From contig CAZDCG010000001.1 of the NCBI GenBank assembly GCA_964503955.1, positions 237,804-301,803 of the forward strand: DNA of 64,000 nucleotides. The letters are read 5' to 3'. Numbering within the stretch: position 1 is the stretch's first letter; each line of letters opens with the position of its first letter. The DNA comes from an uncultured Gammaproteobacteria bacterium (GTDB lineage: Bacteria; Patescibacteriota; Patescibacteriia; VMEV01; CAYQCH01). The notes below the pieces were generated by a model. The model did not search any database, was not told where the DNA came from, and saw only the letters and a list, made by a program, of their open reading frames with translations. The position numbers were made by a program, and so were the translations under genes. Shown here piece after piece: positions 11,580-62,536 of this stretch.

Positions 11580-13061
11580 ATGGCGGATGTTGAAAGTTTG
11601 TATCAACAGTTCATACAAACAGTCCGCAAACATAATCCGGACGCGGATTTTGCGCTTCTTGAAAAAGCGTTTCAATTCTCAAATGAATGCCACAAAGGGC
11701 AGATGAGGCAGAGCGGTGAACCGTATATCATCCACCCTACCCTTGTTGCGACAAATCTTGCCAGACTCAATATGGACTCGCCGGCTATTGCCGCGGGTCT
11801 TTTGCATGATGTGATTGAAGACACCGCCACCACGCCTGACCAGCTTGAAGAGTTGTTTGGCAAAAGCGTACGCGAACTCGTGGAAGGCGTTTCAAACCTG
11901 CGCCGCATCCGTTTCAGCAATAAAAGCCAGTACATCGAAAATCTGCGCAAAATGTTTGTTGCAACAGCCAAAGATATCCGCGTTATCATCATCCGTCTTT
12001 GCGACCGTCTGCACAATATGCAGACATTGGAGTATCTTACGGCCGAGCAGCAGCATCGTATCGCGCTTGAAACGCTTGAAATCTACGCCCCGATCGCCCA
12101 CCGGCTCCAAATGGGACAGCTTCGCGGCGAATTGGAAGACTGGGCATTTAAATATTTGCACCCGGAGGAGTACCGCTGGCTCTATAATGTCACTCGAAAG
12201 AATTTACAGGACAATGAAGTCCGCCTGAATCGTACCAGCGGACGCATCCGCGAATTGCTCGAACGCGAACAGATCCAGGTGGTCAATATTCAGAAGCGCA
12301 TCAAGTTTTTGTACAGCCTGTATAAAAAACTCCAGCGTTATGACAATGACCTATCGCGTATTTACGATGTCGTCGCGCTCCGCGTGATCGTCCCAAAGGT
12401 AGCTGACTGTTACGCGGCCCTAGGAATCATTCATCGTGAGTTCAAACCAGTGAAAGGACGTATCAAAGACTATATCGCCCGGCCGAAAACGAACGGCTAC
12501 ACGTCGCTGCATACCACCGTTATCATTGAAGAAGGACATATCATCGAAGTGCAAATACGCACCCCTGAAATGCATGAGAAAGCGGAATACGGTATCGCGG
12601 CCCATTGGCTGTACAAAGACGGCACGAATTCACAGCGCCCGATTGAAATCTCCTGGGTCAAGGAGCTGGCAAGACTCATCCAGGAAATTCGCGATCCGAA
12701 TGATTTTGAATCAATGAAGATCGATTTGTTCAATCACCGCATTTTCGTGCTGACCCCCCAGGGAGATGTGATCGATCTGCCTGAAGAAGCCACCCCGGTC
12801 GACTTTGCCTACCACATCCATACCGATGTCGGAAATCAAACAACCCGAGCCAAGGTCAACGGGGTTGTCCAGCCGCTTGATGCAAAACTGCAGAATGGAG
12901 ATATCGTGGAGATTATCACGGACAAGAAAAAAACCGGGCCGGATATCGAATGGCTCGATTTCGTCAAAACACATTTGGCTATATCAAAGATCAAATACTA
13001 TAACCGCAAACGTTTAGCGAAGTGGAGAGACAAGCTGCAACAGACAAAGAACTCCTCTTAA
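11580..13061 (+). CDS. rel: RelA/SpoT-family (p)ppGpp synthetase/hydrolase, short form (HD + synthetase + TGS, no C-terminal ACT/RRM)
   Basis: HD domain (HPTLVATNLARL..LLHDVIEDT), synthetase region (RIKDYIARPKTNGYTSLHTTV) and a TGS domain (VLTPQGDVIDLPEEATPVDFAYHIHTDVG). It ends after TGS at about 494 aa. Confidence 0.8.
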   Translation: MADVESLYQQFIQTVRKHNPDADFALLEKAFQFSNECHKGQMRQSGEPYIIHPTLVATNLARLNMDSPAIAAGLLHDVIEDTATTPDQLEELFGKSVRELVEGVSNLRRIRFSNKSQYIENLRKMFVATAKDIRVIIIRLCDRLHNMQTLEYLTAEQQHRIALETLEIYAPIAHRLQMGQLRGELEDWAFKYLHPEEYRWLYNVTRKNLQDNEVRLNRTSGRIRELLEREQIQVVNIQKRIKFLYSLYKKLQRYDNDLSRIYDVVALRVIVPKVADCYAALGIIHREFKPVKGRIKDYIARPKTNGYTSLHTTVIIEEGHIIEVQIRTPEMHEKAEYGIAAHWLYKDGTNSQRPIEISWVKELARLIQEIRDPNDFESMKIDLFNHRIFVLTPQGDVIDLPEEATPVDFAYHIHTDVGNQTTRAKVNGVVQPLDAKLQNGDIVEIITDKKKTGPDIEWLDFVKTHLAISKIKYYNRKRLAKWRDKLQQTKNSS

Positions 13062-16962: not shown

Positions 16963-17047
16963 TGGGCGAATGGCGGAACTGGTAGACGCGCACGACTCAA
17001 AATCGTGTGTCTTCGGACATGAGGGTTCGAGTCCCTCTTCGCCCACC
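16963..17047 (+). tRNA. tRNA-Leu (anticodon CAA), type II with long variable arm, CCA encoded
   Basis: Acceptor GGGCGAA/TTCGCCC, anticodon stem CACGA/TCGTG with loop CTCAAAA, variable arm GTGTCTTCGGACATG, T-arm GAGGG-TTCGAGT-CCCTC, then A + CCA. Confidence 0.8.
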
Positions 17048-17078: not shown

Positions 17079-17137
17079 GGCGGAACTCAAAATCGTGTGT
17101 CTTCGGACATGAGGGTTCGAGTCCCTCCCGCGCTACC
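17079..17137 (+). repeat. degenerate tandem copy of the 3' two-thirds of tRNA-Leu(CAA) (anticodon loop to CCA), possible integrase att scar
   Basis: GGCGGAACT followed by CAAAATCGTGTGTCTTCGGACATGAGGGTTCGAGTCCCTC is identical to the tRNA, but D-arm/anticodon 5' stem residues (GGTAGACGCGCACGA) are deleted and the acceptor 3' strand differs (CCGCGCTACCA). It lies 31 bp after the intact tRNA. Confidence 0.6.
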
Positions 17138-17215: not shown

Positions 17216-17767
17216 ATGAACAAAAATCAGGCTCGCGAACAGGCACGCTTGCTGCTTGGCCTTGGCGGAATGTACTGGGCTGTTGTTCAGGATCTTGCAG
17301 ACGGTCCACGCATGAAGATTCTGAATTTCTGCCACACCTTCCACGACTTTCTGGCTTGCGAGCGCCATCAGAAAAAAGGCGAACGGACATTAAACATCCT
17401 GCGCCGCAAGCTAAGTACCTGGAATCTTCGCCTTGGTATGTCCAGACCAGAAATCGAAGAACTGCTTGGCCCCTGTGCACATACCGGCAACCTCAGGCTC
17501 AAAGAGTACCTGAAGCGGCGCCCGGTCTCTGACCTGTATCAGAGCTGCATCAAGAGCATTCATGGCACCAAACGGAACATCGACCGAATGCTCTCGACGA
17601 AAGGGATCAATGATCTTTCAACGCTTTTGGCTATTCCCTACAAGAGGATGCGCTCCCACGACCGCTGGTGTATCCTGAAGATTCTTCTCCCGCTCAACCT
17701 GAATGTCGGGATGACAGCCGAAGAAATCCGGCTCGCGCTGGATTTGGAAAACGAAGAGGCCCGCTGA
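17216..17767 (+). CDS. hypothetical protein
   Basis: GGAGG ribosome-binding site 5 nt before ATG 17216. No recognisable domain. It lies between the two tRNA-remnant loci. Confidence 0.4.
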   Translation: MNKNQAREQARLLLGLGGMYWAVVQDLADGPRMKILNFCHTFHDFLACERHQKKGERTLNILRRKLSTWNLRLGMSRPEIEELLGPCAHTGNLRLKEYLKRRPVSDLYQSCIKSIHGTKRNIDRMLSTKGINDLSTLLAIPYKRMRSHDRWCILKILLPLNLNVGMTAEEIRLALDLENEEAR

Positions 17768-17927: not shown

Positions 17928-18003
17928 CGCGGGGTAGAGAAATTGGCATCTCGCCAGGCCCATAACCTGGAGATTCCCGGTTCGAGTCCGGGCCCCGCAA
18001 CCA
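17928..18003 (+). tRNA. initiator tRNA-fMet (anticodon CAT), CCA encoded
   Basis: CGCGGGG...CCCCGCA-A-CCA with the C1:A72 mismatch typical of bacterial initiators. Anticodon loop CCCATAA, T-arm CCCGG-TTCGAGT-CCGGG. The D-arm is short (GAG/CTC). Confidence 0.7.
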
Positions 18004-18242
18004 AAAGTGCGCCACGACAAGTGGTGCATTTTTGATTGTGGGTGGACTCGCGGGGATGTTAAGGGGGCAGCGCCCCCTTATATTCCGGGGGTGACAGTGA
18101 ACCTGAGCTTGCGAAGGTGAACGCCAGAGGGGCGCAAGCCCCTATGGAGAGGTCGACGAATGAATTGAGTCGACCGAGAGTCCGGGCCCCGCAACCAAAA
18201 GACCGCCACGTAAGTGGTGGTTTTTTGATTGTGGGTGGACTA
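17984..18242 (+). repeat. two ~65-bp direct repeats (17984-18048 and 18178-18242, ~90% identical), each = last 20 nt of tRNA-fMet + terminator hairpin + GATTGTGGGTGGACT; the 130-bp spacer starts with CGCGGGGA
   Basis: Direct sequence comparison. Each copy carries a CCACG-nnn-AGTGG hairpin plus a T-run. The region between a second CGCGGGG and the second ...CCCCGCAACCA forms a tRNA-like frame holding a ~120-nt insert. Confidence 0.6.
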
Positions 18243-18252
18243 GAACCGGACA

Positions 18253-18325
18253 AGACTCACAGACAAACATTTGTCTGTGATGTCTGCCAAGTCTGCGAGT
18301 CTTAAAAGTCTGTCTATCTAGTCTG
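18253..18325 (+). promoter_or_regulatory. candidate operator module upstream of rhodanese gene: palindrome AGACTCACAGACAAA-cat-TTTGTCTGTGAtGTCT followed by GTCTG half-sites phased ~9 bp
   Basis: GTCTG/GTCT at 18273, 18282, 18291, 18299, 18308 and 18321 (spacing 9, 9, 8, 9, 13). The same module recurs at 60918-61048. Confidence 0.5.
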
Positions 18326-18383
18326 TCTTGAGCGGATTAGATATACTTACCCTGATGCAACCTGTTATTCAATCCGCGAATAT

Positions 18384-18776
18384 ATGTCTGAAAATGTCAC
18401 CCTTATCAACCAGGAGGAATCTGAAAAAGGTCTGCCTGAGCAGCTTCCCTGCGAGGCGCTTTGGCAGCTCGAACATGCCGGCGAGCGTCCCAATATTTTA
18501 GATGTCCGCGAGCAGGATGAATGGGATGCTGGCCATATTGAATGGGCAACGCATCTTCCTCTCAGTAATGTGCGTGAGCAGGTTGAAAAGATTTTTCCAA
18601 ATAAAAATGAATTGATCATCTCCTGCTGCGCTTCCGGCGGACGGTCGGCAAAAGCGGTCGATATCATGAAAGAATTGGGATACACGAATGTCAAAAATTT
18701 AATCGGCGGATACACCGGATACTGCGGCCGCGAAGACAACCCGGAGGAAATGCTTTCCGATGAGGAAGGAGCTTGA
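18384..18776 (+). CDS. rhodanese-domain sulfurtransferase
   Basis: ILDVREQDEWDAGHIEWATHLP...IISCCASGGRSAKAV carries the rhodanese active-site Cys loop. Confidence 0.8.
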   Translation: MSENVTLINQEESEKGLPEQLPCEALWQLEHAGERPNILDVREQDEWDAGHIEWATHLPLSNVREQVEKIFPNKNELIISCCASGGRSAKAVDIMKELGYTNVKNLIGGYTGYCGREDNPEEMLSDEEGA

Positions 18777-18835
18777 CTCAAGACTAACTAGACTAGCTAG
18801 TTGAGCCAGACGAAGTCCGGCAACGTTTATAACTT

Positions 18836-19765
18836 ATGCATTGGTTCTTTGACGCCATCATTTTCGGATACCTTTTGTTTTGCTTTCCGGCTGTTTACTG
18901 GCTCGCCACCGGAATGAGAAAACGCATTTCCCCCCGTATGGCGGGCATCATCACCTTCTGGCTGATTGCAGGATGGATTACTATTTTTTACGGCAGTTTT
19001 GTTGAGCCGAGAATGATTGTGGAACATGAACAGGAAATCGAACTGATCCAAGGAGACGATCAGCCGTTTACCATTGCCGTGCTTTCTGATTTGCATGTCG
19101 GTCCGTATAGAAAAGAACATTCAATCATGCGTCTGGTTGAAAAGATTGAAGAACGGAATCCGGATGCTGTTGTTCTGCTTGGAGATTTTGTGTACAAATC
19201 AGCCGAAAGCCTGCCTGAGCTCTCCCCTCTCTACTTCCTCAGCGAGTCATATCCTGTTTTTGCCGTTCTTGGAAACCATGATTACGACTTGTCCGGCAAC
19301 CAAAAAGAACCGAATGATGAACTGGCCGTAAAGGTACGCGCCGCACTAAAAACGCTTGGCGTCACTGTCTTGGAAAATGACGGGCTTCCAATTGCAAATG
19401 GCAGGCTGTACCTTGCCGGCCTGCAGGAAATCTGGACGCATCGAACCGATATCGATGCTGCATTGCAAACCAATATCGAAGGCCTGCCCGTGATCGCTCT
19501 CGCACATAACCCTGATACGGTGGCCGCCTACACGGAACGCCACGATATCGCTCTGACACTTTCCGGGCATACGCATGGAGGACAGATCCGTCTTCCCTTC
19601 ATTGGACCCGCGGGCATCATTCCAACCGAGCTTGGCCAGAAAATCGATAAAGGATTGTTTACGATTAACAATCATCAAGTCCTCATCACTTCAGGCGTTG
19701 GCGAGAGCGGCCCTCGCGCGCGGCTTTTCAATCCGCCTGAAATCATTTACCTGACCATCAAATAA
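18836..19765 (+). CDS. membrane-anchored metallophosphoesterase (calcineurin-like, YkuE/MPP family)
   Basis: N-terminal TM helices and the MPP motifs DLHVGP, GDFV, GNHD, GHTHGG. Confidence 0.8.
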   Translation: MHWFFDAIIFGYLLFCFPAVYWLATGMRKRISPRMAGIITFWLIAGWITIFYGSFVEPRMIVEHEQEIELIQGDDQPFTIAVLSDLHVGPYRKEHSIMRLVEKIEERNPDAVVLLGDFVYKSAESLPELSPLYFLSESYPVFAVLGNHDYDLSGNQKEPNDELAVKVRAALKTLGVTVLENDGLPIANGRLYLAGLQEIWTHRTDIDAALQTNIEGLPVIALAHNPDTVAAYTERHDIALTLSGHTHGGQIRLPFIGPAGIIPTELGQKIDKGLFTINNHQVLITSGVGESGPRARLFNPPEIIYLTIK

Positions 19766-25138: not shown

Positions 25139-28100
25139 CTATTCGTTTATTTCAATGCGCTGCCTTGGCGTTCTCAATGCAACAGCTTCATGTTCGCCTC
25201 CTGTCACCGAAACTCCTTCTGCAACATAACTGCCCCCTTCGGCAACCGCCATGGCACGGTAACGAACGGTGTAGGAACTGCATTCAGGTCCAAGCCAGAT
25301 ATGCGCGTTCATGCGCCCTTCAGAGAGCCGATACGGTGCCGTGGTACAACGCTGGCCTGCTGTGTCATGCATCCACGACAATCCTCTCCACCGCCCTTGC
25401 AGTCCGCTTGGCAAAATGTCTTCCACTAGATACCCGCCGCCAAATTGAGGATTTTTCAGGCTGACAACAATTTCCACCTCCACCGGCAACGAAGGATCAA
25501 TAGACTCAACGATCCTTCCATTCTGTCGATACATGCGCGAAGCACTGATCATGGATGAATCAACCGCATCCGTGAACGGGATCTCATAGGCGGCTGTCGC
25601 ATAGAGGGGGCCTTGAACATCCTCCAGGGAAAGCTGCTGATAATCATCACGGCTCAAGCTTAAGGTAAAGCTTTCATATCCCCGCAAGGTGACAAAACGT
25701 TCTTCCTCGCCTGCACGAACGACAAAGCGCATATCTGCCACCGGCTGATGCGCAAGCTGCGCTTTCCAGTAGCGCACGAGTGCAGCCGGATCCATTTTGT
25801 CTGATTGCGCGAGAAGATAGGCATAGAACAATTCCGCACGCGCATCCTGCAATTGTGCTGCGACCAACATGGCTAATTCTGTCTGCGCGCGAATTTCTAA
25901 CGTTTCCGCATCCTCTGCTGTAATCCATGCCCGGCCGTCCTCTTCCTGATACCCAAGATCAATAGCACGAGCAAAGAGTGACCGCGCTGTCTGCACATCT
26001 CCATAAAGCAGGAGTGCGTCAGCCGCGGTCAATATAGTTTGCACATTCAAATCGTCACGATGTGCGAATTGCTGCAATTGAGCAAGACCGGGCTTCTGTA
26101 AAGCAGCCAATCCCCTGAATGCAAGGGCTGTTTCCTCAAGGGTTCGGTCCTCGTCACTGAGCACTGACGCGAAGTAGACAGCCATTTCTTCAGGTGCGTA
26201 TTCCTGATCATCAAGCAATGGCAGTAAAGCAGATGTCCGCTCAAGGTCAGCCTCGCCGAATGGATAAAGCGTGAATCCTCCGTTCGGTACTTTATACGGT
26301 GTTGTAACAGCCGTTTCCGCCGTCGCATGATCCACGCCAAAGTACTGCTTCAGTAATCCGGCTGCTGCGTCCTGAGCCACACGCCCGTCAAGGCGGGTTC
26401 CATATGCAGAGAATCCTGTCAGCATGCGATACGCATCCGCTCCAATCGATGACGAGAACGAAACATCAATACGCTTTGCTTCTTCAGGTACCTGGGGCAA
26501 CCCCTCTTGCGCCGGTTTGGCAACGGCTTCTCGTCTGGTCGCGTAACTGTCGCGAACCATAAACGACTTGATCACGATATCCTGGCGTTCCTGCGCTGTT
26601 GCTCTTATGGCGTATGCGTACAAACCCGGTTTCAATTGCCCGATAGCAAACTGAGGGTGTTCGGTTAAACGAACCGTTTGCAGCTGATCGGCGACCGGAA
26701 AATCCGCAAGCGAAGACGGCACGGCTTCAACCGCCAGCGGGCCGTAAAAAGCATATTGCACGTCATCATCGGCATGAAGGAAATCCGCATAGCTGCGGGC
26801 GGAAAGCACAATCGAATCCTCCGCCAAGTATTGATCGTTGGCAATCACTTCCACCTGCAAAGGCTGCGCGACTACCACGTCTTTGATCCCAAGCCCGCCT
26901 TTTCTGTCGGATGTGGCGGCTTTTGCAAGGATCGCCCAGGTCGTGACATTATCCGGCAAACGGAACGAAATGCGGGCATAGCCATTGGCATCCGTTTGCA
27001 CGATTTCATAATGCGCGAGTTCAAGGAATTCAGAGCGCACGTCACCGCCGCCGCCACCGCCTCCTTCAAACAGATACGGCGGATGATGCGTGGCTGCCTG
27101 CTGGCGCAGACGATGATACTGCCCAGACCACAATTCCGTCAGAGGATTTTCCGCGGCCGCATACTGGTCAAGTTCCAGATAAGCCCGATCAAGCACGCTG
27201 ATATTTACCTCCGCGCGGACAGGCTTGCCCTGCGCGTCCTTCACCTGGATTTCAGCGTTCACCTCGTCTCCCCTGCCATAAGCATCCGCGCCGGTTTGCA
27301 CGTTTACATCAAGGCGATACGGCTCCTGATCCACCGTGACCGAATCGAGAAAGAACGGATAGGTATAGTAGATTCTGCCATCAATAAGCGCCGCTCCTGC
27401 AAGCGTGAATGAAGGGCGATGTCTGTCTTCAATAAGGAAATCAGCCGTTGCCCCGCGCGTAACTTTGTACCCTTCAATCGAAGGAGCAAGCGCGTACACG
27501 AAGAAAAGCGTGTCTTCAGAAATATTGATGGCCGCGTCCTGCCAGGAATTGAGCTTGGCCTGCAATTTCACAATATCCCCCACCTGGAATCCATCTTCAG
27601 CTTTTTCATGAGAAATCGTCAGATGCGGCTGATAATGCGGCGGGGTCGCGACCTGCACGGGGATTTCTTCATCCGGATTCTCTACATACACCCTGCCATA
27701 AGGCAATTCATAGAACGAAATGTACTCTGTCTGACTGTCGTAGCGTTCAAATGCATCCATGGCTTCAAAGCGGATTTCGTAATTTCGCTCAGGCTGAGGA
27801 GTGAAGGTGAAATGTGTTCGTCCTTGCTCGTCCGTTAATCCCTCATGACGGTCAACAACCTGCTCCTTGCGGGTATATTCGTAGTAATATCTGGTGGTAT
27901 TCGTGTACTCGTCATATTCAGACATCAAAGCAGAAGAAAGCTCGGAGCTGATTTCCACCACCGTCGCGCGGAATGGCACTCCTGCCGCATGGAAGCGCTG
28001 TATCTTATTTTGCGGAGGATACGGTTCGTCTGAGGTGAGATAGTTCAAGCCCTGGACATGCGCAGTAAAGAGTACGGAGCCGTCCTCAACTTCATGCGCC

Positions 28101-30412
28101 AAATCGAAATGCAGATATTCCTGGGTTGTCATCCATGAGACGGACGCAGCGATATCACTGCCAAGGGCCTCAACAGGCTCGGCGCTGAGCCATACCCATT
28201 CGTCAGAGCAGCCCCATTCCGCCAAACATTCACGAATCTCTGATGGATAAACAAATGATGCCATTCCGGCCCCATCCGTCTGAACTGTTGCCACCGTTTG
28301 CTCATCTTGGCGGACACGGAATTCCATGAACGCCGCTGGTTTGCCATCAAACAATGTCGCGCGCAAGGTTACGAAATTGTCCTCTCCGGCATCAACACGT
28401 TGTTTCTCCGGTTCCATCGAGAGGGCGATTTCAGGCGCGCTGAATTCACGCACATCAATGGATTTTGAAAAATGAGATTGCCCATTCACATTCACGTTCA
28501 ATGAATAATAGCCTTCTGCAAGATGCGTAAGGTCAAGATCGCCGGAAAAGAAACCCAAATCATTCACAGCCGGATGCTCTGAAGCAACAACCACCTGCCC
28601 GTTCCAAACAGAGTCGCGCCAGCCGACAAGCTCTATTTCAACTTCCGACGGCATTTCTCCGTCCTGGCGCTGAACAAATCCCCAATAGCGGACCGTATCA
28701 TCCGGATGGGCTAAATACTGATCCAGAGTAACAAACCCATTGTAAATCTCTCGCTGATCAAATCTTCCAAGACGGATCGGCAACGCAGACTGATACGCGC
28801 TCGTGCGGACAAACAAAACGGTCTGCTCCTGCATCATGGCGATTTGCTCCTGCGTCAGCTCGAGCACACCGTCCGCATTGGTCGTGCCAAGCAAGGTGTC
28901 AAACGCGTAAACGGATGCCTGTGCCAATGTTTCTCCTTTTTCCACGTCCACAGCCCAGACCAAACCGTCATTCTCGGTGATTGCCGCGTACATCCCTGCC
29001 GGTGAAACAATCCACGGCATGAGGTATAAACCGCCTCCCACCTCGATCGCCAGCAAGTAGACTCCTTCATTCGCGATCGGCCTTAATGCATAGAATGCCT
29101 GATACGAAGCACTTGATTGCGAAGCAAGCTCATACTGCTGCACAGGCGAAGCAAAATCTTGATCTTCAAGAAATTCCCTAAACAATTCAGACCGCAGCTG
29201 CGACGGAATCCAAGGCGCGATCGTTGAGATTTCCCGCAATACGGATTCTGTCATTTCTTCATTCAATGCGAATACCCGCACTTGCGCCACCGGCTGGCGG
29301 GCTGTGCCGTAATGATATCCGACAAGCTCTGCTCCTTGTCCCGGCTGTGATCCGAGCTGTTCTTCATGGAACCAAATCGCGCCTGAAGAAAGCGCCTCGT
29401 CATTGGTAGCAAATTGAATGACATAATCTTCCTGCAATTCCCAATGGCCTTCAGGCTCGTTTTCCGGGCGATATTCTTCCGCCACGCCAAAGCCGGCGCG
29501 CAGACGAACCGTGTAAACCGTATTCTTCTCCCATGGACGCTCCGGCACGATAATGAATGTTCGATACCCTTCTTCAATCTTGAACGGATGCGCCGGCTCA
29601 ATGCTCACATAATCAGCCGCATTTTTTGTATTGGTATGGCTCACGTTTATGCGAACCGCCGTGTCGACGGGAATATACGAGCTTTGATCAGCCGGTGTGC
29701 TGCCCATCACCTTGAAATGATCCTGAATCTCAAATGCCCATGCGTACTCATATGGATTAAGCCCTGACGCGTCCTGGACAAGGCTTGCGATACGGACCTG
29801 CGTGACACCGCCGCGCTCAAGCTGTTCTTCAGGTTCAATGCGGTACACTGTCCCGCGCTCAATGGTTTTGATCGAAAATGATGTTCCACCGAATGAGAGA
29901 AATGCTTTCAGATCACCGGCTGAAATGCTTGTTTTGCTTGTAAGAATGAAACTGCTATCCGGCCTGACCACTCCAAGCGCATCAACGGATTCAGGTTCAA
30001 GCGTGAAATTGTCATGCGCATGCGCAACAGGCAGCATAATCCCGCCGATCTGCCCCGGCTTATTCAAGCCAGGCAAAGCAGACGGGGTGTAATGCGTAAA
30101 CGCGATCACAAGCGCGATCGCCACCATCAGGACACCGGCCGCCGAGAATGATTTCACGTGAACGAGTTTGAATAAATGTTTTCTCTGCTTTTTCTTCTTC
30201 TCTTGCTGTTCAACCGCCTTGCGTAAAATTTTTCGGAGCAGCATGTCTTTAAATTCCATACGATAGGGTTTAACGTCATGACGAGAGGCAATCATTTTCT
30301 CAGCCATGCGCAAAGCATCCTGTTCTTCAGGACTGAGCTGTTTGCGCTCAGCGTCGGAAATCTGTTCGCCCCGCAAGAGCGCATCCATGAATTGTTGCAA
30401 ATGGCTATTCAT
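25139..30412 (-). CDS. 1757-aa single-pass membrane protein: N-terminal cytoplasmic anti-sigma-factor-like domain + TM + large extracytoplasmic alpha-2-macroglobulin (A2M/MG-domain) family region
   Basis: Start ATG overlaps the ECF sigma stop by 8 nt (TATGAATAG). ~84-aa N-domain, then TM AAGVLMVAIALVIAF. MG-like segments (LRATLFDGKPAAFMEFRVRQDEQTVATVQTDGAGMASFVYP). A2M hallmark ...VLDRAYLEL...DVRSEFLELAHYEIVQTDANGYARISFRLPDNVTTW (cf. RSxFPETWxW...PDSITTW). C-terminal GGYLVEDILPSGL receptor-binding-domain-like segment. No CxEQ thioester seen. Confidence 0.7.
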   Translation of the reverse strand: MNSHLQQFMDALLRGEQISDAERKQLSPEEQDALRMAEKMIASRHDVKPYRMEFKDMLLRKILRKAVEQQEKKKKQRKHLFKLVHVKSFSAAGVLMVAIALVIAFTHYTPSALPGLNKPGQIGGIMLPVAHAHDNFTLEPESVDALGVVRPDSSFILTSKTSISAGDLKAFLSFGGTSFSIKTIERGTVYRIEPEEQLERGGVTQVRIASLVQDASGLNPYEYAWAFEIQDHFKVMGSTPADQSSYIPVDTAVRINVSHTNTKNAADYVSIEPAHPFKIEEGYRTFIIVPERPWEKNTVYTVRLRAGFGVAEEYRPENEPEGHWELQEDYVIQFATNDEALSSGAIWFHEEQLGSQPGQGAELVGYHYGTARQPVAQVRVFALNEEMTESVLREISTIAPWIPSQLRSELFREFLEDQDFASPVQQYELASQSSASYQAFYALRPIANEGVYLLAIEVGGGLYLMPWIVSPAGMYAAITENDGLVWAVDVEKGETLAQASVYAFDTLLGTTNADGVLELTQEQIAMMQEQTVLFVRTSAYQSALPIRLGRFDQREIYNGFVTLDQYLAHPDDTVRYWGFVQRQDGEMPSEVEIELVGWRDSVWNGQVVVASEHPAVNDLGFFSGDLDLTHLAEGYYSLNVNVNGQSHFSKSIDVREFSAPEIALSMEPEKQRVDAGEDNFVTLRATLFDGKPAAFMEFRVRQDEQTVATVQTDGAGMASFVYPSEIRECLAEWGCSDEWVWLSAEPVEALGSDIAASVSWMTTQEYLHFDLAHEVEDGSVLFTAHVQGLNYLTSDEPYPPQNKIQRFHAAGVPFRATVVEISSELSSALMSEYDEYTNTTRYYYEYTRKEQVVDRHEGLTDEQGRTHFTFTPQPERNYEIRFEAMDAFERYDSQTEYISFYELPYGRVYVENPDEEIPVQVATPPHYQPHLTISHEKAEDGFQVGDIVKLQAKLNSWQDAAINISEDTLFFVYALAPSIEGYKVTRGATADFLIEDRHRPSFTLAGAALIDGRIYYTYPFFLDSVTVDQEPYRLDVNVQTGADAYGRGDEVNAEIQVKDAQGKPVRAEVNISVLDRAYLELDQYAAAENPLTELWSGQYHRLRQQAATHHPPYLFEGGGGGGGDVRSEFLELAHYEIVQTDANGYARISFRLPDNVTTWAILAKAATSDRKGGLGIKDVVVAQPLQVEVIANDQYLAEDSIVLSARSYADFLHADDDVQYAFYGPLAVEAVPSSLADFPVADQLQTVRLTEHPQFAIGQLKPGLYAYAIRATAQERQDIVIKSFMVRDSYATRREAVAKPAQEGLPQVPEEAKRIDVSFSSSIGADAYRMLTGFSAYGTRLDGRVAQDAAAGLLKQYFGVDHATAETAVTTPYKVPNGGFTLYPFGEADLERTSALLPLLDDQEYAPEEMAVYFASVLSDEDRTLEETALAFRGLAALQKPGLAQLQQFAHRDDLNVQTILTAADALLLYGDVQTARSLFARAIDLGYQEEDGRAWITAEDAETLEIRAQTELAMLVAAQLQDARAELFYAYLLAQSDKMDPAALVRYWKAQLAHQPVADMRFVVRAGEEERFVTLRGYESFTLSLSRDDYQQLSLEDVQGPLYATAAYEIPFTDAVDSSMISASRMYRQNGRIVESIDPSLPVEVEIVVSLKNPQFGGGYLVEDILPSGLQGRWRGLSWMHDTAGQRCTTAPYRLSEGRMNAHIWLGPECSSYTVRYRAMAVAEGGSYVAEGVSVTGGEHEAVALRTPRQRIEINE

Positions 30413-31055
30413 ATGATTGTTCAGCGGCTTTCGCGTAGAGTTTTTTCAATCCGCGGTGAATGCGCACGGAAACGGCATTAGGCGTCAGCTCTACGATGGA
30501 AGAAATCTCTTTTACCGAGAGTTCGGCAAAGAATCGCAGCTCAATAATTTTGCGGTCTGTCTTTGAAAGCGAAGAAAGCAGCAATAAGACTTCTTCTTTT
30601 CTTTCTGCGCTGATCACTTCCTGATGCGCGCCGGCTGAAGTATCGGGACGCTCCGGCAGCACATCGGTGGCATACTCGTTCTTCGTGGAGGATTTCCGAT
30701 AATAATCCGTCAAAAGATTTGCAGCGATACGATATACCCAGGCCCCGAACGGCGCGCCGGTAATTTGAAAGCGGGGCAGCTTTTCAAAGGCTTTCAGAAA
30801 AACCTGCGAAGTCAGGTCTTCGGTTGTTTGTTCATGTCCGCAGCGGCGGTAAATATACCGGTAAATCAGCGGGAAATAGTGATGATAAAGCTTCGTGAAT
30901 GCCTGTTCATCGCCGCGTTTTGCTTTTTTAACAAGCTCTTTTTCTCCGGCAAGCGTCTCATGAGTCTGATTGGCTGAAGCCATGGCAAAAAAACGGAGCG
31001 ACTCCCGGAAAAAACCTCCTGCAAATTGTCCAATAAGATCAGCCAAAAGCGTCAT
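30405..31055 (-). CDS. ECF (sigma-70 family group 4) RNA polymerase sigma factor
   Basis: Region 2 (EQAFTKLYHHYFPLIYRYIYRRCGHEQTTEDLTSQVFLKAFEKL) and region 4 (LSSLSKTDRKIIELRFFAELSVKEISSIVELTPNAVSVRIHRGLKKL). The true start may be the internal ATG at 30983. Confidence 0.8.
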   Translation of the reverse strand: MTLLADLIGQFAGGFFRESLRFFAMASANQTHETLAGEKELVKKAKRGDEQAFTKLYHHYFPLIYRYIYRRCGHEQTTEDLTSQVFLKAFEKLPRFQITGAPFGAWVYRIAANLLTDYYRKSSTKNEYATDVLPERPDTSAGAHQEVISAERKEEVLLLLSSLSKTDRKIIELRFFAELSVKEISSIVELTPNAVSVRIHRGLKKLYAKAAEQSYE

Positions 31056-33750: not shown

Positions 33751-33867
33751 AAGATCTCTTGAAATGAGAGCAGCCCCGCTCGGATGAAATCCAAGCGGGG
33801 CCGTTTTGTGGTTTGCCTCAGAGCGGGAGGATGCTCCTTGGCAGGCCGATCCACGTGGCCCAGGGAA

Positions 33868-34941
33868 CTAGCTGCGGCTCTGGCGCCAGCTCTCGCCGTT
33901 GCCGCCGAAGCTGGGCAGGCCGTAGGTGCCGCCGTTGATGCCGGCGCCCACGAGCGCGGGGCTCTCCATGCCGTCGTACACCGTGGCGGCCGCGTCGGAG
34001 ATGGCCTTGTACTGCTCGCCGGTCAGGTTCTCGGGGTTGACCTCACCGACGGCCGAGGTGCCGGCCTGGATCTGCTCGTTGACCGAGTTGACCTTGCTCA
34101 GGGCGCGGAACCACATGCCGAAGACGTAGCGCTGGCCCATGTCGTAGGCCCCCTCCAGGAACTCGGACGGGTTCTCGATGCCCAGCTGCTGGGTCTTGAT
34201 GCTCCCCGTCGAGATCAGCTGGGTGAGCATCTCGGTGAAGGGCACCTGCCGCGTGTCCGTGGCGATGTCGTGGATGTGGAAGCGGCTCGCCGCGGTCTTC
34301 TTGGCGAAGCTGCCGCCGAGCTTGACGTCGGTCACGACGTACTGGCCGTCGATCAGCAGGGCGCGCACCACGGCCATGGGGGCCGTCTTGAAGACGGTGC
34401 TCTTGCGGACGCTGCGGTCGTAGACCGCGAGCGTGAGCTCGAGGGTGTCCACCTGGCCCTCGTACTGGCCGTAGTTCAGCCAGGCGTTGAGGGCGTTCTT
34501 GATCTTGGTCACCGTCGTGACGAGGTTCGTCCGGCGGCCCTTGCCGCGCCCGGTCTTGCCCTTGTTGAACGGGATCTTGAGCACCGAGCGCATGATGTCC
34601 GCGGGCGACATCTCGAGCATCGGGTTGATCCCCCTGCCGGCGAGCGTCGCGGTGAGCGTCTCGGAGGTCACCTGCACGCCGAAGTAGTTGAAGACGCGGG
34701 AGATGCCCTCGAACATCATGATCGGCCCGCGCTTCATCTGCATCCGCGCGGTGATCTGATCGAGCGTGACGACGGTGTTGTCCTCGCAGAGCGAGATGCC
34801 GCCCGTCGCGCGGAACTGCACGAACTCGTGGCGGCTGACCAGCCGGACCTTGCCCTGCTTGATCAGGTCCACGATGCGAGCGCGGTCCGTGAACGAGGCG
34901 GCGAGCCGGGTGGAGACGTTGTTGAGGTTGATCGAACGCAT
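33868..34941 (-). CDS. hypothetical protein encoded in a ~67% GC compositional island (possible horizontally acquired / virus-derived gene)
   Basis: Of three overlapping ORFs, only this frame has a balanced, protein-like composition; the other two are Arg/Ala/Gly-rich antisense artefacts. GGAG ribosome-binding site 7 nt before ATG 34941. GC3-biased codons contrast with ~50% GC flanks. No family recognised. Confidence 0.55.
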   Translation of the reverse strand: MRSINLNNVSTRLAASFTDRARIVDLIKQGKVRLVSRHEFVQFRATGGISLCEDNTVVTLDQITARMQMKRGPIMMFEGISRVFNYFGVQVTSETLTATLAGRGINPMLEMSPADIMRSVLKIPFNKGKTGRGKGRRTNLVTTVTKIKNALNAWLNYGQYEGQVDTLELTLAVYDRSVRKSTVFKTAPMAVVRALLIDGQYVVTDVKLGGSFAKKTAASRFHIHDIATDTRQVPFTEMLTQLISTGSIKTQQLGIENPSEFLEGAYDMGQRYVFGMWFRALSKVNSVNEQIQAGTSAVGEVNPENLTGEQYKAISDAAATVYDGMESPALVGAGINGGTYGLPSFGGNGESWRQSRS

Positions 34942-35611
34942 GAAACACTCCGTGTTCTCTGGCTCTCCGTGCCCTCTTCATGAGGGCTCGACGGAGAACA
35001 CAACACTTTCAGAAACGTTGTCGGGGCGCACGCCCCAACCCTTCAGAGCGGAGTTTTGGACCTCAGTGTTCTTTTGAGGGACCAAAAAACCCCGATCTCT
35101 ATGAATACCTTTTTTCAATCGAAACTGCGAAAGTACCCATAGGGATCGGAGTTATAAAAACTCCTTACCCCAAAGTGTATGTAAAGAGCAGCCAGACCGA
35201 AGTCTGAACCCTGATCACATGAATCTATGAGCAGATTTCAGTTTTCGGAACTGCCGGAAAAAAAAAGCGCTCCCGCTTTCACGGTGGCCTTCGCATTCCA
35301 GACTGGATAGCGAAGTAAATCTATTGAAGGCAGTCGACGTCCCTCAAAAGTTTAACTTCGCTGTTCAGCCGGCAATGGAAAGAACAATTTTCTACGTGTT
35401 GATCCTCATACTATCACAGCCTAAGAGGTTGTCAAGGAATGACAACACACAGGAAAGGCCCAGCTCAAAGCCCTGATTTCCTTGGATTTCCTGTTGAATA
35501 CCTCTAATTCATCAACAGCGCTGTGGATAAGTCATCTCCAAAGAACACTTAGCGAACCCGGCTGAAGTTTTCTTCTCGAGCCGATCAAAGGTTGCGTATA
35601 CATTCCATTCT

Positions 35612-53058: not shown

Positions 53059-54102
53059 ATGTACAAATACGCAAACAATTTTGACCGCGAGACGCTTGAA
53101 AAAAAGCTTGCGGCTGAACCATTCAAACGAAAGGCTATTTCGTTCTATAAGTATGTCCGCCTGCAGGACGTACCTGCTTTGCGCAATAAACTCTACGCCG
53201 AATGGGAAGTGCTTGGCGTGCTTGGCCGCATCTATATCGCCGAGGAAGGAATCAATGCGCAGATCAGCGTGCCTGAGCATGAGGCAGATGCATTCCGCGC
53301 TTCTGTCGACCGTTATCCTTTTTTCAAAGACGTTCCTTTCAAGTTCGGCCTGGTCGACACAAAAGCGTTCATCAAGCTCACGATAAAAGTCAAAAAACAG
53401 ATCGTAGCAGATGGATTGACGATAGACGATTACGATATCGCAAATGTTGGCAACCACCTTGAACCGGAAGAATGGAACGAAGCGATGAGCAGCCCTGAAA
53501 CGATTGTGGTTGACATGCGCAATCATTATGAAAGCCGGATCGGCCGCTTTGAAAATGCGATCACTCCCGATGTCGATACGTTCAGAGAGGAATTGCCGAA
53601 AGTAAAAGAATTGCTGCAAGGCAAGGAAGACAAAAAAATTCTTCTGTACTGCACGGGAGGCATTCGCTGCGAAAAAGCCAGCGCGTATTTGAAGTCAAAA
53701 GGATTCAAAGATGTCAATCAACTCCACGGAGGCATCATCAATTATGGACATGCCGTGAAACAAGGACGTATCCAGAGCAAATATCTGGGCAAAAACTTCG
53801 TCTTTGACGAACGGCTTGCCGAACCGATCACGGATGATGTGCTTGCAGAATGCGACCAGTGCGGAGGAAAAAGCGACCGCCAAATCAATTGTAAAAATGA
53901 AACCTGCCACTTGCTTTTTATCCAATGCAATGACTGTGCTGCAAAAATGCAGGATTGCTGCTCGCAGGCCTGCATGGAATTTGCCGCCCTGGCGCTTGAA
54001 GAGCGAAGACGGCTGCGAAAACTGAATTCACATCCAACAAGCAAGTCGCAGTACGGAGAGCGGCTCAGACCAAGGCTCAAACAATCCGCGCGCCAGAACT
54101 AG
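53059..54102 (+). CDS. trhO: tRNA uridine(34) hydroxylase TrhO (rhodanese-like, YceA/UPF0176) with C-terminal Cys-rich tail
   Basis: YceA N-domain (ISFYKYVRL.D....R.....W..LGVLGRIYIAEEGINAQIS) and a rhodanese domain with catalytic Cys (LLYCTGGIRCEKASAYL). Confidence 0.75.
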   Translation: MYKYANNFDRETLEKKLAAEPFKRKAISFYKYVRLQDVPALRNKLYAEWEVLGVLGRIYIAEEGINAQISVPEHEADAFRASVDRYPFFKDVPFKFGLVDTKAFIKLTIKVKKQIVADGLTIDDYDIANVGNHLEPEEWNEAMSSPETIVVDMRNHYESRIGRFENAITPDVDTFREELPKVKELLQGKEDKKILLYCTGGIRCEKASAYLKSKGFKDVNQLHGGIINYGHAVKQGRIQSKYLGKNFVFDERLAEPITDDVLAECDQCGGKSDRQINCKNETCHLLFIQCNDCAAKMQDCCSQACMEFAALALEERRRLRKLNSHPTSKSQYGERLRPRLKQSARQN

Positions 54103-55381: not shown

Positions 55382-55849
55382 TTATGACAATGATTCCAGA
55401 TCGGCAAGCACCTCTTTGGCATGATCAGCTGGTTTTACCTTCGGGTAGATTTTGGCAATCTTGCCGGTTGGATCGATCAAAAATGACATGCGATTGATGC
55501 CCATGTATTCTCGCCCCATGAATTTCTTCTTCCCCCAGACACCGTATGCCTTCACAACGGTTTTCTCTTCATCTGCGAGGAGATCAAACGGGAGTCCGTA
55601 TTTTTCAACAAATTTTTTATGCCTTGCAACACTGTCCGCGCTCACGCCAAGCACCTCCACCTTTTGCTTTTTATAATCTGCATACTGGTCTCTAATACCG
55701 CAAGCTTCCTTTGTGCACCCAGGCGTATCGTCTTTTGGGTAGAAATACAGAAGCAGCCACTTGCCTTTGTAATCAGAAAGCTTATGCATTTCCCCGTCCT
55801 GATCGGCGAGCGCGAAGGCAGGGGCTTTGTCCCATTCTTTGAGTTTCAT
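55382..55849 (-). CDS. bcp: peroxiredoxin Bcp (thiol peroxidase)
   Basis: FYPKDDTPGCTKEAC peroxidatic-Cys motif. Confidence 0.85.
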   Translation of the reverse strand: MKLKEWDKAPAFALADQDGEMHKLSDYKGKWLLLYFYPKDDTPGCTKEACGIRDQYADYKKQKVEVLGVSADSVARHKKFVEKYGLPFDLLADEEKTVVKAYGVWGKKKFMGREYMGINRMSFLIDPTGKIAKIYPKVKPADHAKEVLADLESLS

Positions 55850-60003: not shown

Positions 60004-60864
60004 CTACTTCTGGCAATTCCTGCAAAAATGCGTTCCACGGCCTGCAATGACGCGCTTTTCGATGAAATCGTCACCACAGCGCAAACATCGCTCGCCCGCG
60101 CGGTTATAAACCCGCAAATGTTTATAAAAACCGCCTTTCCGGCCCGACGCATCCACAAAATTGGAAAAGGTTGTCCCGCGCTTTAAGACGGCAGCCTCAA
60201 GCACCATGGTCAAAGACCGGAAGAGCCGCTTCTGTTCCGCAGGCGAAAGAGAGGCCAATGACCGCCCGGGAAGGATTCTTGCCCGATGCAGAATTTCATC
60301 CGCGTAAATATTTCCTACGCCCGCGATATAGCGCTGATTTAGCAAAAAAGCTTTCACCTCTCCGCGCCGGTTTTTCAGCAATGACGCGAACTGCTCCCAG
60401 GAAAACGGTTCTGCAATCGGATCGATTCCATAGCCGCGCAGATAACCTTCATATTGCTCAGGCCCGACCAACTTGATCCAGCCAAACGTACGGATATCGT
60501 TGAAGTAAATATTCGTACCGTCCGCCAAGGTGATACGGACATGCGTATGCTTATTCGGCAATGATTCCGTGCTCGCCGACGGATGCCCGCCGACCACGAT
60601 TCCTCCAGGAACTTCGCAAATCACCTGCCCGGTCATTTTTAAATGCATGAGCATGCGTTTGTCTCCATAGGCCAGCTCAAAAATGAGCAGCTTTCCTTTT
60701 CGCAGAACCGCTTCAAAACGATTGAGGCAAAGGACTTGTTTCATGTCTTCCGGATCGCTCAAGACGCACTTTCCCGTATAAAACTCAATATCCCGGATCC
60801 CCTTTCCAAGGATGAGATATTGCAAGTCTCTTCGGATTGTTTCTACTTCGGGTAATTCGGGCAT
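60004..60864 (-). CDS. mutM: formamidopyrimidine-DNA glycosylase
   Basis: N-terminal MPELPEVE catalytic Pro, H2TH domain, and C-terminal zinc finger CLRCGDDFIEKRVIAGRGTHFCRNCQ. Confidence 0.85.
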   Translation of the reverse strand: MPELPEVETIRRDLQYLILGKGIRDIEFYTGKCVLSDPEDMKQVLCLNRFEAVLRKGKLLIFELAYGDKRMLMHLKMTGQVICEVPGGIVVGGHPSASTESLPNKHTHVRITLADGTNIYFNDIRTFGWIKLVGPEQYEGYLRGYGIDPIAEPFSWEQFASLLKNRRGEVKAFLLNQRYIAGVGNIYADEILHRARILPGRSLASLSPAEQKRLFRSLTMVLEAAVLKRGTTFSNFVDASGRKGGFYKHLRVYNRAGERCLRCGDDFIEKRVIAGRGTHFCRNCQK

Positions 60865-60917
60865 GGCATTTTGTATAAGCATTCTGCGGAGAATCCAGCT
60901 GAAACTTCCGCAGAATG

Positions 60918-61048
60918 CAGACATTTCAGACTTGCCAGACTCTCAGACAAAACGCCGGTTTGAAGCAGATCTTAAGCCATCAAAGCCGCTCTGTAAAGAA
61001 AGACTCACAGACAACCAGGTCTGTGAGTCTGAAAGGTCTGTACGTCTA
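60918..61048. promoter_or_regulatory. candidate operator module upstream of mutM: four CAGAC half-sites phased 9-9-8 bp plus perfect palindrome AGACTCACAGAC-aaccag-GTCTGTGAGTCT
   Basis: CAGAC at 60918, 60927, 60936 and 60944. Palindrome at 61001-61030. GTCTG/GTCTA at 61036 and 61044. It mirrors the 18253-18325 module when oriented toward the downstream gene. Confidence 0.5.
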
Positions 61049-61054
61049 ACAAGA

Positions 61055-62536
61055 CTATAATTCAAGGCTTCCGTAATGGAAGGCCATGAACACCTTGTAT
61101 CCATCTCCCTGAGGGACAAGCGCCACCCCTGCGCCAACACTATTCCAATCTTCATGATAAATGGTCCGGTAATGCGATCCATTATAAGAGGCTTCTGAAA
61201 GGTAGAAAGCAAGCGTATTGTCCATGGCTTTCTTTATCTGCTCATTGGTCGCGCCTGAAGCATAATCCCAGGAGATATTTTCCGTGAAGTAATTCGACTT
61301 CCATCCATCTTCGCTGTAGCGCTCAGTGAAATCAAGCCCCTTTGCGTCAATCCATTGATGCATGCTCTTGCCGTCCGGACGGTCGTGGCTTGTGACTCCG
61401 CTCTTGGCCATATATTCAGCCCACTCCGTTGCCGTTGCGCGCCAGCGGTCATCGAGCACAAGCAGGCGCAGCCCCTGCTTTGCGCGAAGTTCATTGATCT
61501 TTGAAAGCCAATATTGATTCAACAGATCCAAATCGATCCCCGCTGGAACAGAAGAGTCAGGCAAGAGCTCTTTTTTCTCCTCCTTGACCGGTGTGGATGT
61601 TTTCTTGTCGGTGATCACGTACTTCTCAAATTCTCCAGCCCCGATCTGCTCAAGATCCTTATTCGTAATACCAAGACTCAACTCGCGCATGATGCGGTAT
61701 GCCTCTTCCCCGTCTTTCAGATAATGCAAGGTAAGTTTTTCAGGATGAACATAGTAGGCCTCGCCATGCGCTTGCACTTTCAACACGATTCTTCCCTTGA
61801 TATTCACCAGGACTGACTTGTCGCCTTTCATCGCACGGTCCAGATCGGTATTGGAGATGCCAAGTCCAAAGGAGCGCATCATTTCATACGCGGTCGCGCC
61901 GTCTTTCATGTAAAAGCGCGTGCCTTTCTCGGGGTGCACATACCACGCTTCTCCGTTCTTCTCGACTTGCAAAAGAATATGTCCTTTGACGCGCTCCCTT
62001 AATACTTCTTTTGGCGGCTTGGCTAGCTTCTTGGCAGCTTCTTTCTCCACAAGCGCGCGCTCCTGCTCTTTTAGCAGCTTTTCCTTTTCAGCGAGCTTTC
62101 GTGCATACTCCTCCTCGCTTTTTAATTTTTCCTGCTCCTTGATTTTCTCGTAGCTTTCGTTTTTGACTGTTTCTTTCTTCACATCAGTTGAGCCGTTCTT
62201 TGACGTGATCGAAAGAAAATCCTGCCAGACAAAACCTTTGGTTCCGTCTGAAAGCTGAATCTTATACCAGCCGTCCGCTTCGCCTAAGATCGTTACTGAT
62301 GTTCCTCCGGGAACGGTACGAACCACATTGGAATCCATGCATGTGCGGTCGCGCATATTGACCCCGCTTTTGATTTGCCCGGTCCAGTTCACGGGCGTGA
62401 CCGGGTAATTGCAGTCGATAGTGGCCAATGCCGATGACGGCATGGAGAGCCCGGCAGCCAAAACGATTGCCACGCTGAGAAGAGAAAGACGCGCTTTCAT
62501 AAAAGATGTGTTAAAGACCTTCTTAGTATAAAACAA
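61055..62536 (-). CDS. secreted SH3b-domain / CAP (SCP/PR-1-like) domain protein with two internal ~48-aa repeats
   Basis: A signal peptide, an SH3b domain (NMRDRTCMDSNVVRTVPGGTSVTILGEADGWYKIQLSDGTKGFVW), repeats GHILLQVEKNGEAWYVHPEKGTRFYMKDGATAYEMMRSFGLGISNTDL and GRIVLKVQAHGEAYYVHPEKLTLHYLKDGEEAYRIMRELSLGITNKDL, and a C-terminal CAP domain. Confidence 0.6.
   Translation of the reverse strand: MFYTKKVFNTSFMKARLSLLSVAIVLAAGLSMPSSALATIDCNYPVTPVNWTGQIKSGVNMRDRTCMDSNVVRTVPGGTSVTILGEADGWYKIQLSDGTKGFVWQDFLSITSKNGSTDVKKETVKNESYEKIKEQEKLKSEEEYARKLAEKEKLLKEQERALVEKEAAKKLAKPPKEVLRERVKGHILLQVEKNGEAWYVHPEKGTRFYMKDGATAYEMMRSFGLGISNTDLDRAMKGDKSVLVNIKGRIVLKVQAHGEAYYVHPEKLTLHYLKDGEEAYRIMRELSLGITNKDLEQIGAGEFEKYVITDKKTSTPVKEEKKELLPDSSVPAGIDLDLLNQYWLSKINELRAKQGLRLLVLDDRWRATATEWAEYMAKSGVTSHDRPDGKSMHQWIDAKGLDFTERYSEDGWKSNYFTENISWDYASGATNEQIKKAMDNTLAFYLSEASYNGSHYRTIYHEDWNSVGAGVALVPQGDGYKVFMAFHYGSLEL

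Follow-up and report, generated by a model that had tools for sequence, protein, structure and literature searches.

The intergenic DNA upstream from fpg (mutM) in an uncultivated bacterium of the Patescibacteria (CPR) carries several copies of the pentamer GTCTG, or CAGAC when read on the opposite strand, arranged around a perfect palindrome. A related module precedes a rhodanese/phosphoesterase operon. This raises the question of whether the two modules serve as operators for a common regulator or are repeats of some other kind. The ground covered here is a 64-kb stretch of the genome (51% GC), referred to below as the window. Within it, the pentamer clusters at only two sites, module A (18253-18328) and module B (60918-61056). 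These are the only two regions of the 64 kb with at least four GTCTG/CAGAC in 150 bp, and each of them contains 8 pentamers; the maximum attained in 200 first-order Markov simulations of the window was 5 pentamers per 150 bp. As single words, GTCTG and CAGAC occur in the 64 kb at close to the expected frequency (66 and 84 times versus approximately 57 and 72 expected). GTCTG-N3-4-GTCTG pairs occur 4 times in the window against 0.06 expected, and the combined array pattern is matched 3 times where 0.00 matches are expected. Chance is excluded for the clustering of GTCTG.

The two modules together comprise 21 GTCT/AGAC units. The four core positions are invariant (2 bits per position), the fifth is a G in 14 units out of 21, and the spacer positions between units carry 0.5 bits or less. 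The 21 cores fill an unbroken lattice with a step of 8-9 bp, with zero decayed units in either module. The combination of an intact GTCT, variable spacers and the lack of any decayed unit argues for constraint on the core rather than for a decaying duplication. In both modules the core occurs in either orientation and a dyad is present. Thus, as in operator arrays, a short core is significantly clustered on a regular lattice. Both modules are intergenic and no copy of the motif lies inside a gene within the 64 kb, a finding that runs against a repeat family residing mostly inside genes, which the preliminary description of this DNA had named as the alternative to a regulatory role.

Re-reading of the sequence confirmed the four CAGAC half-sites of module B at plus-strand positions 60918, 60927, 60936 and 60944. 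On the minus strand, this left array (60918..60948) reads as four GTCTG directed toward fpg with 8-9-9 spacing. The perfect palindrome with 12-bp arms described at 61001..61030, AGACTCACAGAC-aaccag-GTCTGTGAGTCT, is also present in the sequence and consists of 2+2 inverted AGAC/GTCT units. Its right arm is at the same time the first part of a rightward array (61019..61056, plus strand) made up of three GTCTG (61019, 61027 and 61036), one GTCTA (61044) and an inverted AGAC (61052) on an 8-9-8-8 lattice. This right array reaches the stop codon of the gene for an SH3 + CAP-domain secreted protein (61055..62536, minus strand), which lies upstream of fpg. A 52-bp gap separates the palindrome/right-array part from the left array, and some 82 bp, or about 8 helical turns, lie between the centres of the arrays. 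Finally, an inverted repeat, GCATTCTGCGGA...TCCGCAGAATGC (60879..60918, minus strand), separates the left array from the fpg ATG; it forms a 12-bp stem (-23.2 kcal/mol as RNA) and no U-tract comes after it. The parts reported initially are therefore all in place, but the module is larger than thought, as it includes the right array to 61056 and the inverted repeat at 60879-60918. The fpg gene itself (60004..60864, minus strand, 286 aa) begins at ATG 60864 with the N-terminus MPELPEVE, confirming the distances originally given for the half-sites (-54 to -84) and the palindrome (-137 to -166). The next gene after fpg is hpf, with a ggTATAAT promoter of its own. Pfam confirms the SH3/CAP, Fpg and HPF assignments around module B.

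For comparison, we used about 139 kb of sequence from seven relatives (L001, L005, L006, L007, L136, L137 and L142). These are related to the window at 48-61% protein identity, the best Fpg homologs being 61% identical. The SH3/CAP-fpg-hpf order is kept in 5 of the 6 fpg relatives examined; in the sixth, L137, the CAP gene comes after fpg. A sigma-70-type fpg promoter is predicted at 60969..60997 (minus strand), with a -35 box TTTACA (60997-60992), a 17-bp spacer and a -10 box TAAGAT (60974-60969). It is sandwiched between the palindrome on one side and the left 4xGTCTG array on the other. Promoter calls are consensus matches only; this one gains support from similar -10 boxes in front of fpg orthologs and of further genes in the window. 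All five syntenic relatives have a TAAGAT, TAAAAT or TAAAAC -10 box in front of fpg, and boxes of the TAAGAT/TAAAAT type are also found at the ECF-sigma and hpf genes of the window. Transcription of fpg would most likely start near position 60962, placing the 4xGTCTG array at about +14 to +44. The order on the minus strand is then most likely CAP stop codon, right array, palindrome/terminator, fpg promoter, 4xGTCTG, hairpin and fpg ATG. Module B is promoter-proximal, and with this promoter its four half-sites lie downstream from the predicted transcription start rather than upstream of it.

The palindrome of module B has a second feature that bears on its role. On the minus strand, it specifies a hairpin of -19.8 kcal/mol followed by UUUCUUU, 25 nt past the stop codon of the SH3/CAP gene. 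A terminator scan called it terminator-like, and the B palindrome alone has the features of an intrinsic terminator. Moreover, it occupies the site where relatives place the SH3/CAP terminator: in 5 of 5 syntenic relatives an ordinary hairpin with a U-tract follows the CAP gene. From its sequence and position, the B palindrome probably doubles as the intrinsic terminator of SH3/CAP, which argues against its being simply a far-upstream operator. The 12-bp stem, the tail, the distance from the stop codon and the position all liken it to a Rho-independent terminator. Unlike a plain terminator, however, its stem is shared with module A, where the palindrome has no U-tract and no upstream gene to terminate, and it is embedded in arrays of its own half-arms.

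Module A (18253..18328, plus strand) follows the same design as module B; this is continuous in A and split in two in B. It consists of an imperfect palindrome, AGACTCACAGAC-N8-GTCTGTGAtGTCT, that continues into a rightward array toward the rhodanese gene. GTCT units are found at 18273, 18282, 18291, 18299, 18308 (+18312) and 18321 (+18325), and the direct repeats stop about 55 bp short of the rhodanese ATG. Pfam identifies the two genes of the downstream operon (18384..19765, plus strand) as a rhodanese (18384-18776) and a metallophosphoesterase (18836-19765). The consensus scan returned no promoter on the plus strand of module A. By eye, a candidate -10 box for the operon, TATACT without a TG extension, can be seen at 18342..18347 (plus strand); the sole -35 candidate, TAGTCT (18319-18324), is a poor match and falls inside the last unit of the array. 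The placement of the arrays thus differs, that of A being upstream of or overlapping the putative promoter and those of B flanking it or lying downstream, a difference that weighs against a common operator function. The spacer between the rhodanese and phosphoesterase genes carries two further AGAC units (18781 and 18790). An inverted repeat, CTCAAGACTAACTAGACTAGCTAGTTGAG, spans this site (18778-18806) and contains two AGACT units 9 bp apart; it may belong to module A as an outlier.

The two modules are specifically related. The left arm of the B palindrome at 61001 is identical to 18253-18264, as previously noted, and the identity even extends to a 15-mer, AAGACTCACAGACAA. Both modules contain the sequence TTTGTCTG(t/a)GA(t)GTCTG(c/g)CAAGTCTG in the same polarity toward the respective downstream gene, and they have a 26-bp array segment in common. 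When each is read toward its gene, the A array is TTTGTCTGtGAtGTCTGcCAAGTCTG and the B left array TTTGTCTGaGA-GTCTGgCAAGTCTG; the spacers align too, the best alignment requiring a 1-bp gap. The 9-9-8 spacing initially ascribed to both holds only on plus-strand coordinates. Because the motif is oppositely oriented in the two modules, however, the spacing in common orientation is 9-9-8 in A and 8-9-9 in B. No homology between A and B was found in the flanks outside the arrays, nor any TIR/TSD or common internal sequence between the two. With no homology beyond the arrays, A and B are not copies of a mobile element with internal sequence. Their specific relatedness and their proximity to promoters make a common sequence-specific binding factor the most economical reading. 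The suggestion that fpg and the rhodanese/phosphoesterase operon share a regulator is therefore plausible, given the common cores, 15-mer and 26-bp segment, the same polarity and the promoter-proximal positions. The same does not apply to the further suggestion of an oxidative or sulfur-stress regulon, a label not supported by the distribution of the motif: none was found at the other thiol-redox genes of the window (bcp at 55382-55849, VKOR, DsbB-like and the TrhO-type rhodanese at 53059). The sole hint toward such a label comes from L136, where bcp is preceded by an array of the same syntax with a different core.

The DNA preceding module A shows duplications of another sort. A 65-bp direct repeat, 91% identical between its copies at 17984-18048 and 18178-18241, duplicates the 3′ end of tRNA-Met, its terminator and TTGATTGTGGGTGGACT. 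The copies enclose a 152-nt element (18049-18200) that starts with the 5′ strand of the tRNA's acceptor (CGCGGGG), ends with ...CCCCGCAACCA and contains three strong hairpins. This tRNA-like element gave no match to Rfam or with ARAGORN and is absent from L142. tRNA-Leu has likewise been duplicated in part, with the second copy some 90 bp further downstream (17008-17037 versus 17098-17127). Module A begins 11 bp past the duplicated tRNA-Met 3′ end and terminator. This vicinity, and the 12-6/8-12 geometry of the two palindromes, which resembles that of recombinase core sites, could be taken to indicate sites of recombination or integration, composed of a tyrosine-recombinase core and arm-type direct repeats, that would be either relics of a tRNA-Met element or the ends of an invertible 42.7-kb segment. 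We regard this as very improbable. The spacer is aaacattt in A and aaccag in B, a difference that would prevent recombination between the two. The repeated tRNA end is confined to its own locus, without a copy near B; for the same reason, an island bounded by tRNA repeats was discarded. No integrase or transposase is found among the annotated or scanned ORFs, and the interval is made up of housekeeping genes in an order syntenic with that of relatives. No similarity to phages or plasmids was detected, which also speaks against a plasmid or phage origin.

Modules A and B are absent from the relatives that keep fpg and the rhodanese-phosphoesterase pair, and GTCTGx4 is absent from the loci of L001, L005, L007, L136, L137 and L142. 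Loss of the module in close relatives retaining the expression features of fpg had been proposed as an argument against a regulatory role. The absence is real, but at protein identities of only 48-61% it points to a lineage-specific gain and does not refute function. In L142, tRNA-Leu and tRNA-Met are followed by a terminator, then by some 55 bp that include an extended -10 box (TGaTAAACT), and finally by the rhodanese-phosphoesterase genes, with nothing resembling an array. Module A was therefore added between terminator and promoter specifically in the lineage of the window. Closer sequences come from four Logan samples (SRR11843815/27/30/35), which contain the same organism in contigs matching the window at 99.8-100% identity. 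These contigs are from the same strain and show module A unchanged; as these are the only closer sequences, they provide no phylogenetic footprint. Three of the Logan contigs (L139, L140 and L141), from independent samples, all stop at position 21292, inside a Ser/Thr-kinase ORF region, which suggests a repeat or a strain-variable junction at this point.

One of the relatives does have the motif. L006, whose Fpg is 61% identical, carries GTCTGgattaGTCTGgcgtaGTCTGctaattGTCTG, that is, GTCTGx4, between fpg and hpf (10970-11005), about 90-125 bp upstream of a TGtATAAT promoter. When the seven loci were simulated together (139 kb, 100 simulations), an array of four units arose in 0 simulations and one of three units in 1. 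The period in L006 is 10-10-11 bp versus 8-9 bp in the window, and hence one protein geometry may not serve for both. An unbiased scan for arrays of any pentamer, run over the relatives, identified three further cases. In L136, CAGTGtccCAGTGatCACTGagaCACTGaaaCACTG (12937-12988) has CAGTG/CACTG in a 2+3 arrangement with an 8-bp period and ends 15 bp before the bcp start codon. In L005, TTTGCx4 with an 8-bp period (1277-1305) lies 20 bp before a start codon. In L006, GATATattGATAT...ATATCtcATATC (2984-3015), a 2+2 arrangement of GATAT/ATATC, lies between divergent genes. Since relatives use the same syntax near promoters with other cores, an operator grammar seems to recur in the clade, in which short cores follow an 8-10 bp lattice and an inverted centre is extended by direct repeats.

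Some of these findings can also be accommodated if the modules are repeats with no regulatory role, of the REP/BIME type or terminator hairpins, with arms that were locally duplicated or slipped, A and B being alike by descent or copying. The B palindrome has a terminator-like score and sits at the CAP terminator site of relatives, both modules entered intergenic DNA as lineage-specific insertions, and the tRNA locus beside A shows other local duplications. In addition, an unrelated genome, the Lentisphaerae MAG SIG83 (L011, L018, L043 and L075), has a dispersed repeat of about 170-350 bp, in many copies on several contigs, that holds 4-5 perfect tandem GTCTGAC(C/T)T 9-mers. This element is unrelated to the window modules, and the comparison shows what slippage produces: whole units are identical in the Lentisphaerae element, whereas in the window conservation stops at the 5-bp core. 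The palindrome of A, lacking a U-tract and a gene to terminate, does not suit a terminator hairpin. As regards REP, BIME or MITE elements, the 64 kb contain only 2 copies, without homology beyond the arrays, TIR/TSD or common internal sequence, with no copy in genes and no transposase among the ORFs. Searches for the exact palindrome pattern in metagenome and viral contigs gave isolated chance matches in coding DNA only. The array pattern GTCTGN{3,4}GTCTGNNNNGTCTGN{3,4}GTCT, searched across genome contigs, had no Patescibacteria among the matches listed, which were from unrelated, mostly high-GC genomes; of these, the Lentisphaerae MAG was the one inspected more closely. On balance, we consider a non-regulatory origin unlikely; with a coverage of 64 kb of the genome, a dispersed family of this kind nonetheless keeps an appreciable chance.

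Action at the RNA level was also considered. A multimeric RNA-binding protein like TRAP or HutP might bind GUCUG repeats in the 5′ UTR of fpg, perhaps also in the rhodanese leader, or these repeats might pair with the CAGAC-containing 3′ region of CAP when transcripts read through, so as to control processing or translation. From the predicted start, the 4x array and the 60879-60918 hairpin of B would be transcribed within a leader of some 98 nt, most relatives having a much shorter one, and variable spacing (8-9 bp, or 10-11 in L006) would be easier to tolerate on RNA. The fold of the module B region is unusually stable (z = -5.2), but this score is trivially explained by the perfect palindromes. 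The only plausible -10 box of A is downstream of the array, which would then not be transcribed from there. Furthermore, the units are divided equally between the two orientations and make up a dyad, an arrangement typical of duplex-DNA recognition. No Rfam family matched, even at permissive thresholds, and a known RNA family was discarded on these grounds. An RNA-level function is therefore given a small chance.

Tandem operators of similar make-up are known. The metboxes recognised by MetJ are tandem 8-bp AGAC/GTCT units (consensus AGACGTCT) present in 2-5 copies and occupied by adjacent RHH dimers. Their tetramers and period are similar to those of the window modules. In metboxes, however, AGAC and GTCT alternate within each 8-bp unit, whereas the window modules have runs of AGAC followed by runs of GTCT. 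MetJ is known from Gammaproteobacteria only. Another system is Omega, the ParB protein of pSM19035, which binds 7-10 contiguous 7-bp repeats, direct or inverted, overlapping three promoters; an isolated repeat is bound with low affinity, binding to neighbouring repeats is cooperative, and the number and arrangement of repeats vary between sites (PMC9499535). The likeness lies in the contiguous short, non-palindromic repeats in both orientations and in the use of one protein by Omega for several promoters. The Omega unit is a 7-bp WATCACW in runs of 7-10, whereas the window modules have an 8-9 bp unit with a GTCTG core in runs of 4-8. Omega is also plasmid-borne, in a ParA and toxin-antitoxin context, while the modules are chromosomal in a CPR bacterium. 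An Omega-type parS/operator was discarded on account of the unit; the ACTCACA in the palindrome arms fits the heptad at 6 of 7 positions only.

The direct-repeat 9-9-8 part of the modules is reminiscent of the sites of BldC, a small MerR-like protein of Streptomyces that binds direct repeats with a 9-bp unit per subunit, forming head-to-tail oligomers of variable number (PMC5859096). Its unit is AATTNNNN(C) and its sites are direct repeats only, unlike the window modules with their GTCTG core and inverted 2+2 centre. MraZ, an oligomer, binds four short boxes cooperatively, with a 10-bp period and overlapping the transcription start (PMC12957436). The closest likeness to this operator is found in the 4x GTCTG of L006 with its 10-10-11 period. 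MraZ boxes are GTG(G/T) with 6-nt spacers, all direct and upstream of mraZ; the window arrays have an 8-9 bp period, inverted units and no dcw context. Since core, period and context all differ, the modules are not MraZ operators. Several other identities were tried and discarded. Clustered TTATCCACA-like 9-mers with a GC-skew switch, as in an oriC/DnaA-box cluster, were not found. LexA (SOS) boxes, GAAC-N4-GTTC, are absent near either module and in the window fall below the count expected by chance. Reading GTCT as the -10 element of an ECF-sigma promoter (AAC-N17) fits B loosely and A not at all. A literature search for bacterial GTCTG-repeat operators returned nothing specific.

Pfam identifies several potential DNA-binding or regulatory proteins elsewhere in the window, including a PadR, a TrmB-like protein, an ECF sigma factor, HU and a receiver-only response regulator; none of these, nor ParB, could be linked to the GTCTG motif. 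No small RHH-, AbrB- or MerR-like ORF is evident in the window, and no mraZ or RHH gene and no BldC-like protein was found in it. At the PadR-family ORF (1945-2328), which precedes a PspC-domain gene, the start is overlapped by CAAGGTACCTTGcataaCAAGGTACCTTG (1919-1947), two copies of a perfect 12-bp palindrome that differ from the GTCTG modules and probably constitute a PadR auto-operator. The gene for the ECF-type sigma factor (30405-31055, minus strand) is directly followed by that for a 1757-aa protein, an unusually large partner for an ECF sigma (locus 25139-31055); at the corresponding position, L142 has a 1754-aa protein with A2M/Big_5 domains. An orphan ORF beside module A (17216-17767) encodes an all-helical protein of 183 aa; compared with L142, it is an insertion separating tRNA-Leu from tRNA-Met. 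Considered as a possible regulator, it was set aside: it has no Pfam match and no annotated homologs, and its structural model is of low confidence (pLDDT 45). Among 1.8 billion representatives, it matched only two weak unannotated partials (27-29% identity, E = 1e-8 and 3e-4). A separate observation concerns the ORF at 33784-34983 (plus strand, 399 aa), whose Ala/Gly/Arg/Leu-rich composition is typical of an antisense frame; the true gene is probably on the other strand.

Taken together, the constraint on the core, its occurrence in both orientations with a dyad, the promoter proximity, the L006 array and the architectural precedents argue for operator arrays. From the sequence, we give somewhat better than even chances to the proposal that modules A and B are bound by a single oligomerising protein that co-regulates the two operons. 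In this proposal, (A/T)GTCTG units on the 8-9 bp lattice form a 2+2 inverted centre extended by direct repeats, to which a sequence-specific protein would bind cooperatively as a multimer. In B, the arrays would flank the fpg promoter, with the palindrome and right array just upstream of the -35 box and the 4x array at about +14 to +44. Since the arrays bracket the promoter, occupancy would most simply repress fpg, through occlusion, roadblock or looping. In A, the array would abut or overlap the weak -35 box of the rhodanese-phosphoesterase promoter, so that either repression or activation may result. The B palindrome would additionally terminate SH3/CAP transcription. Protein binding, promoter positions, co-regulation and its sign are what we infer from the observed motif statistics, architecture, A/B relatedness, intergenic promoter-proximal placement and lineage specificity. 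The kind of element is most likely conventional, a short-repeat operator array with one part doubling as a terminator.

A broader proposal, which we hold to be rather unlikely, is that these bacteria have a family of regulators, small, oligomerising and RHH-, BldC- or MraZ-like, with fast-evolving 5-bp specificity and one operator syntax, a 2+2 inverted centre with direct repeats, and that one member of it in the organism of the window couples fpg, for the repair of oxidative DNA damage, and possibly hpf, for ribosome hibernation, to the rhodanese/phosphoesterase operon. The cores of such a family would be GTCTG in the window and L006, CACTG in L136, TTTGC in L005 and GATAT in L006, with a period of 8-10 bp. 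Transcriptional regulation in CPR bacteria is almost unknown, and very few transcription factors are recognisable in Patescibacteria. A motif common to two operons offers a concrete way toward a regulator, and the small regulon under it, in a lineage that has not been cultivated; its value is raised by the L006 array and by the arrays of the same syntax in other relatives.
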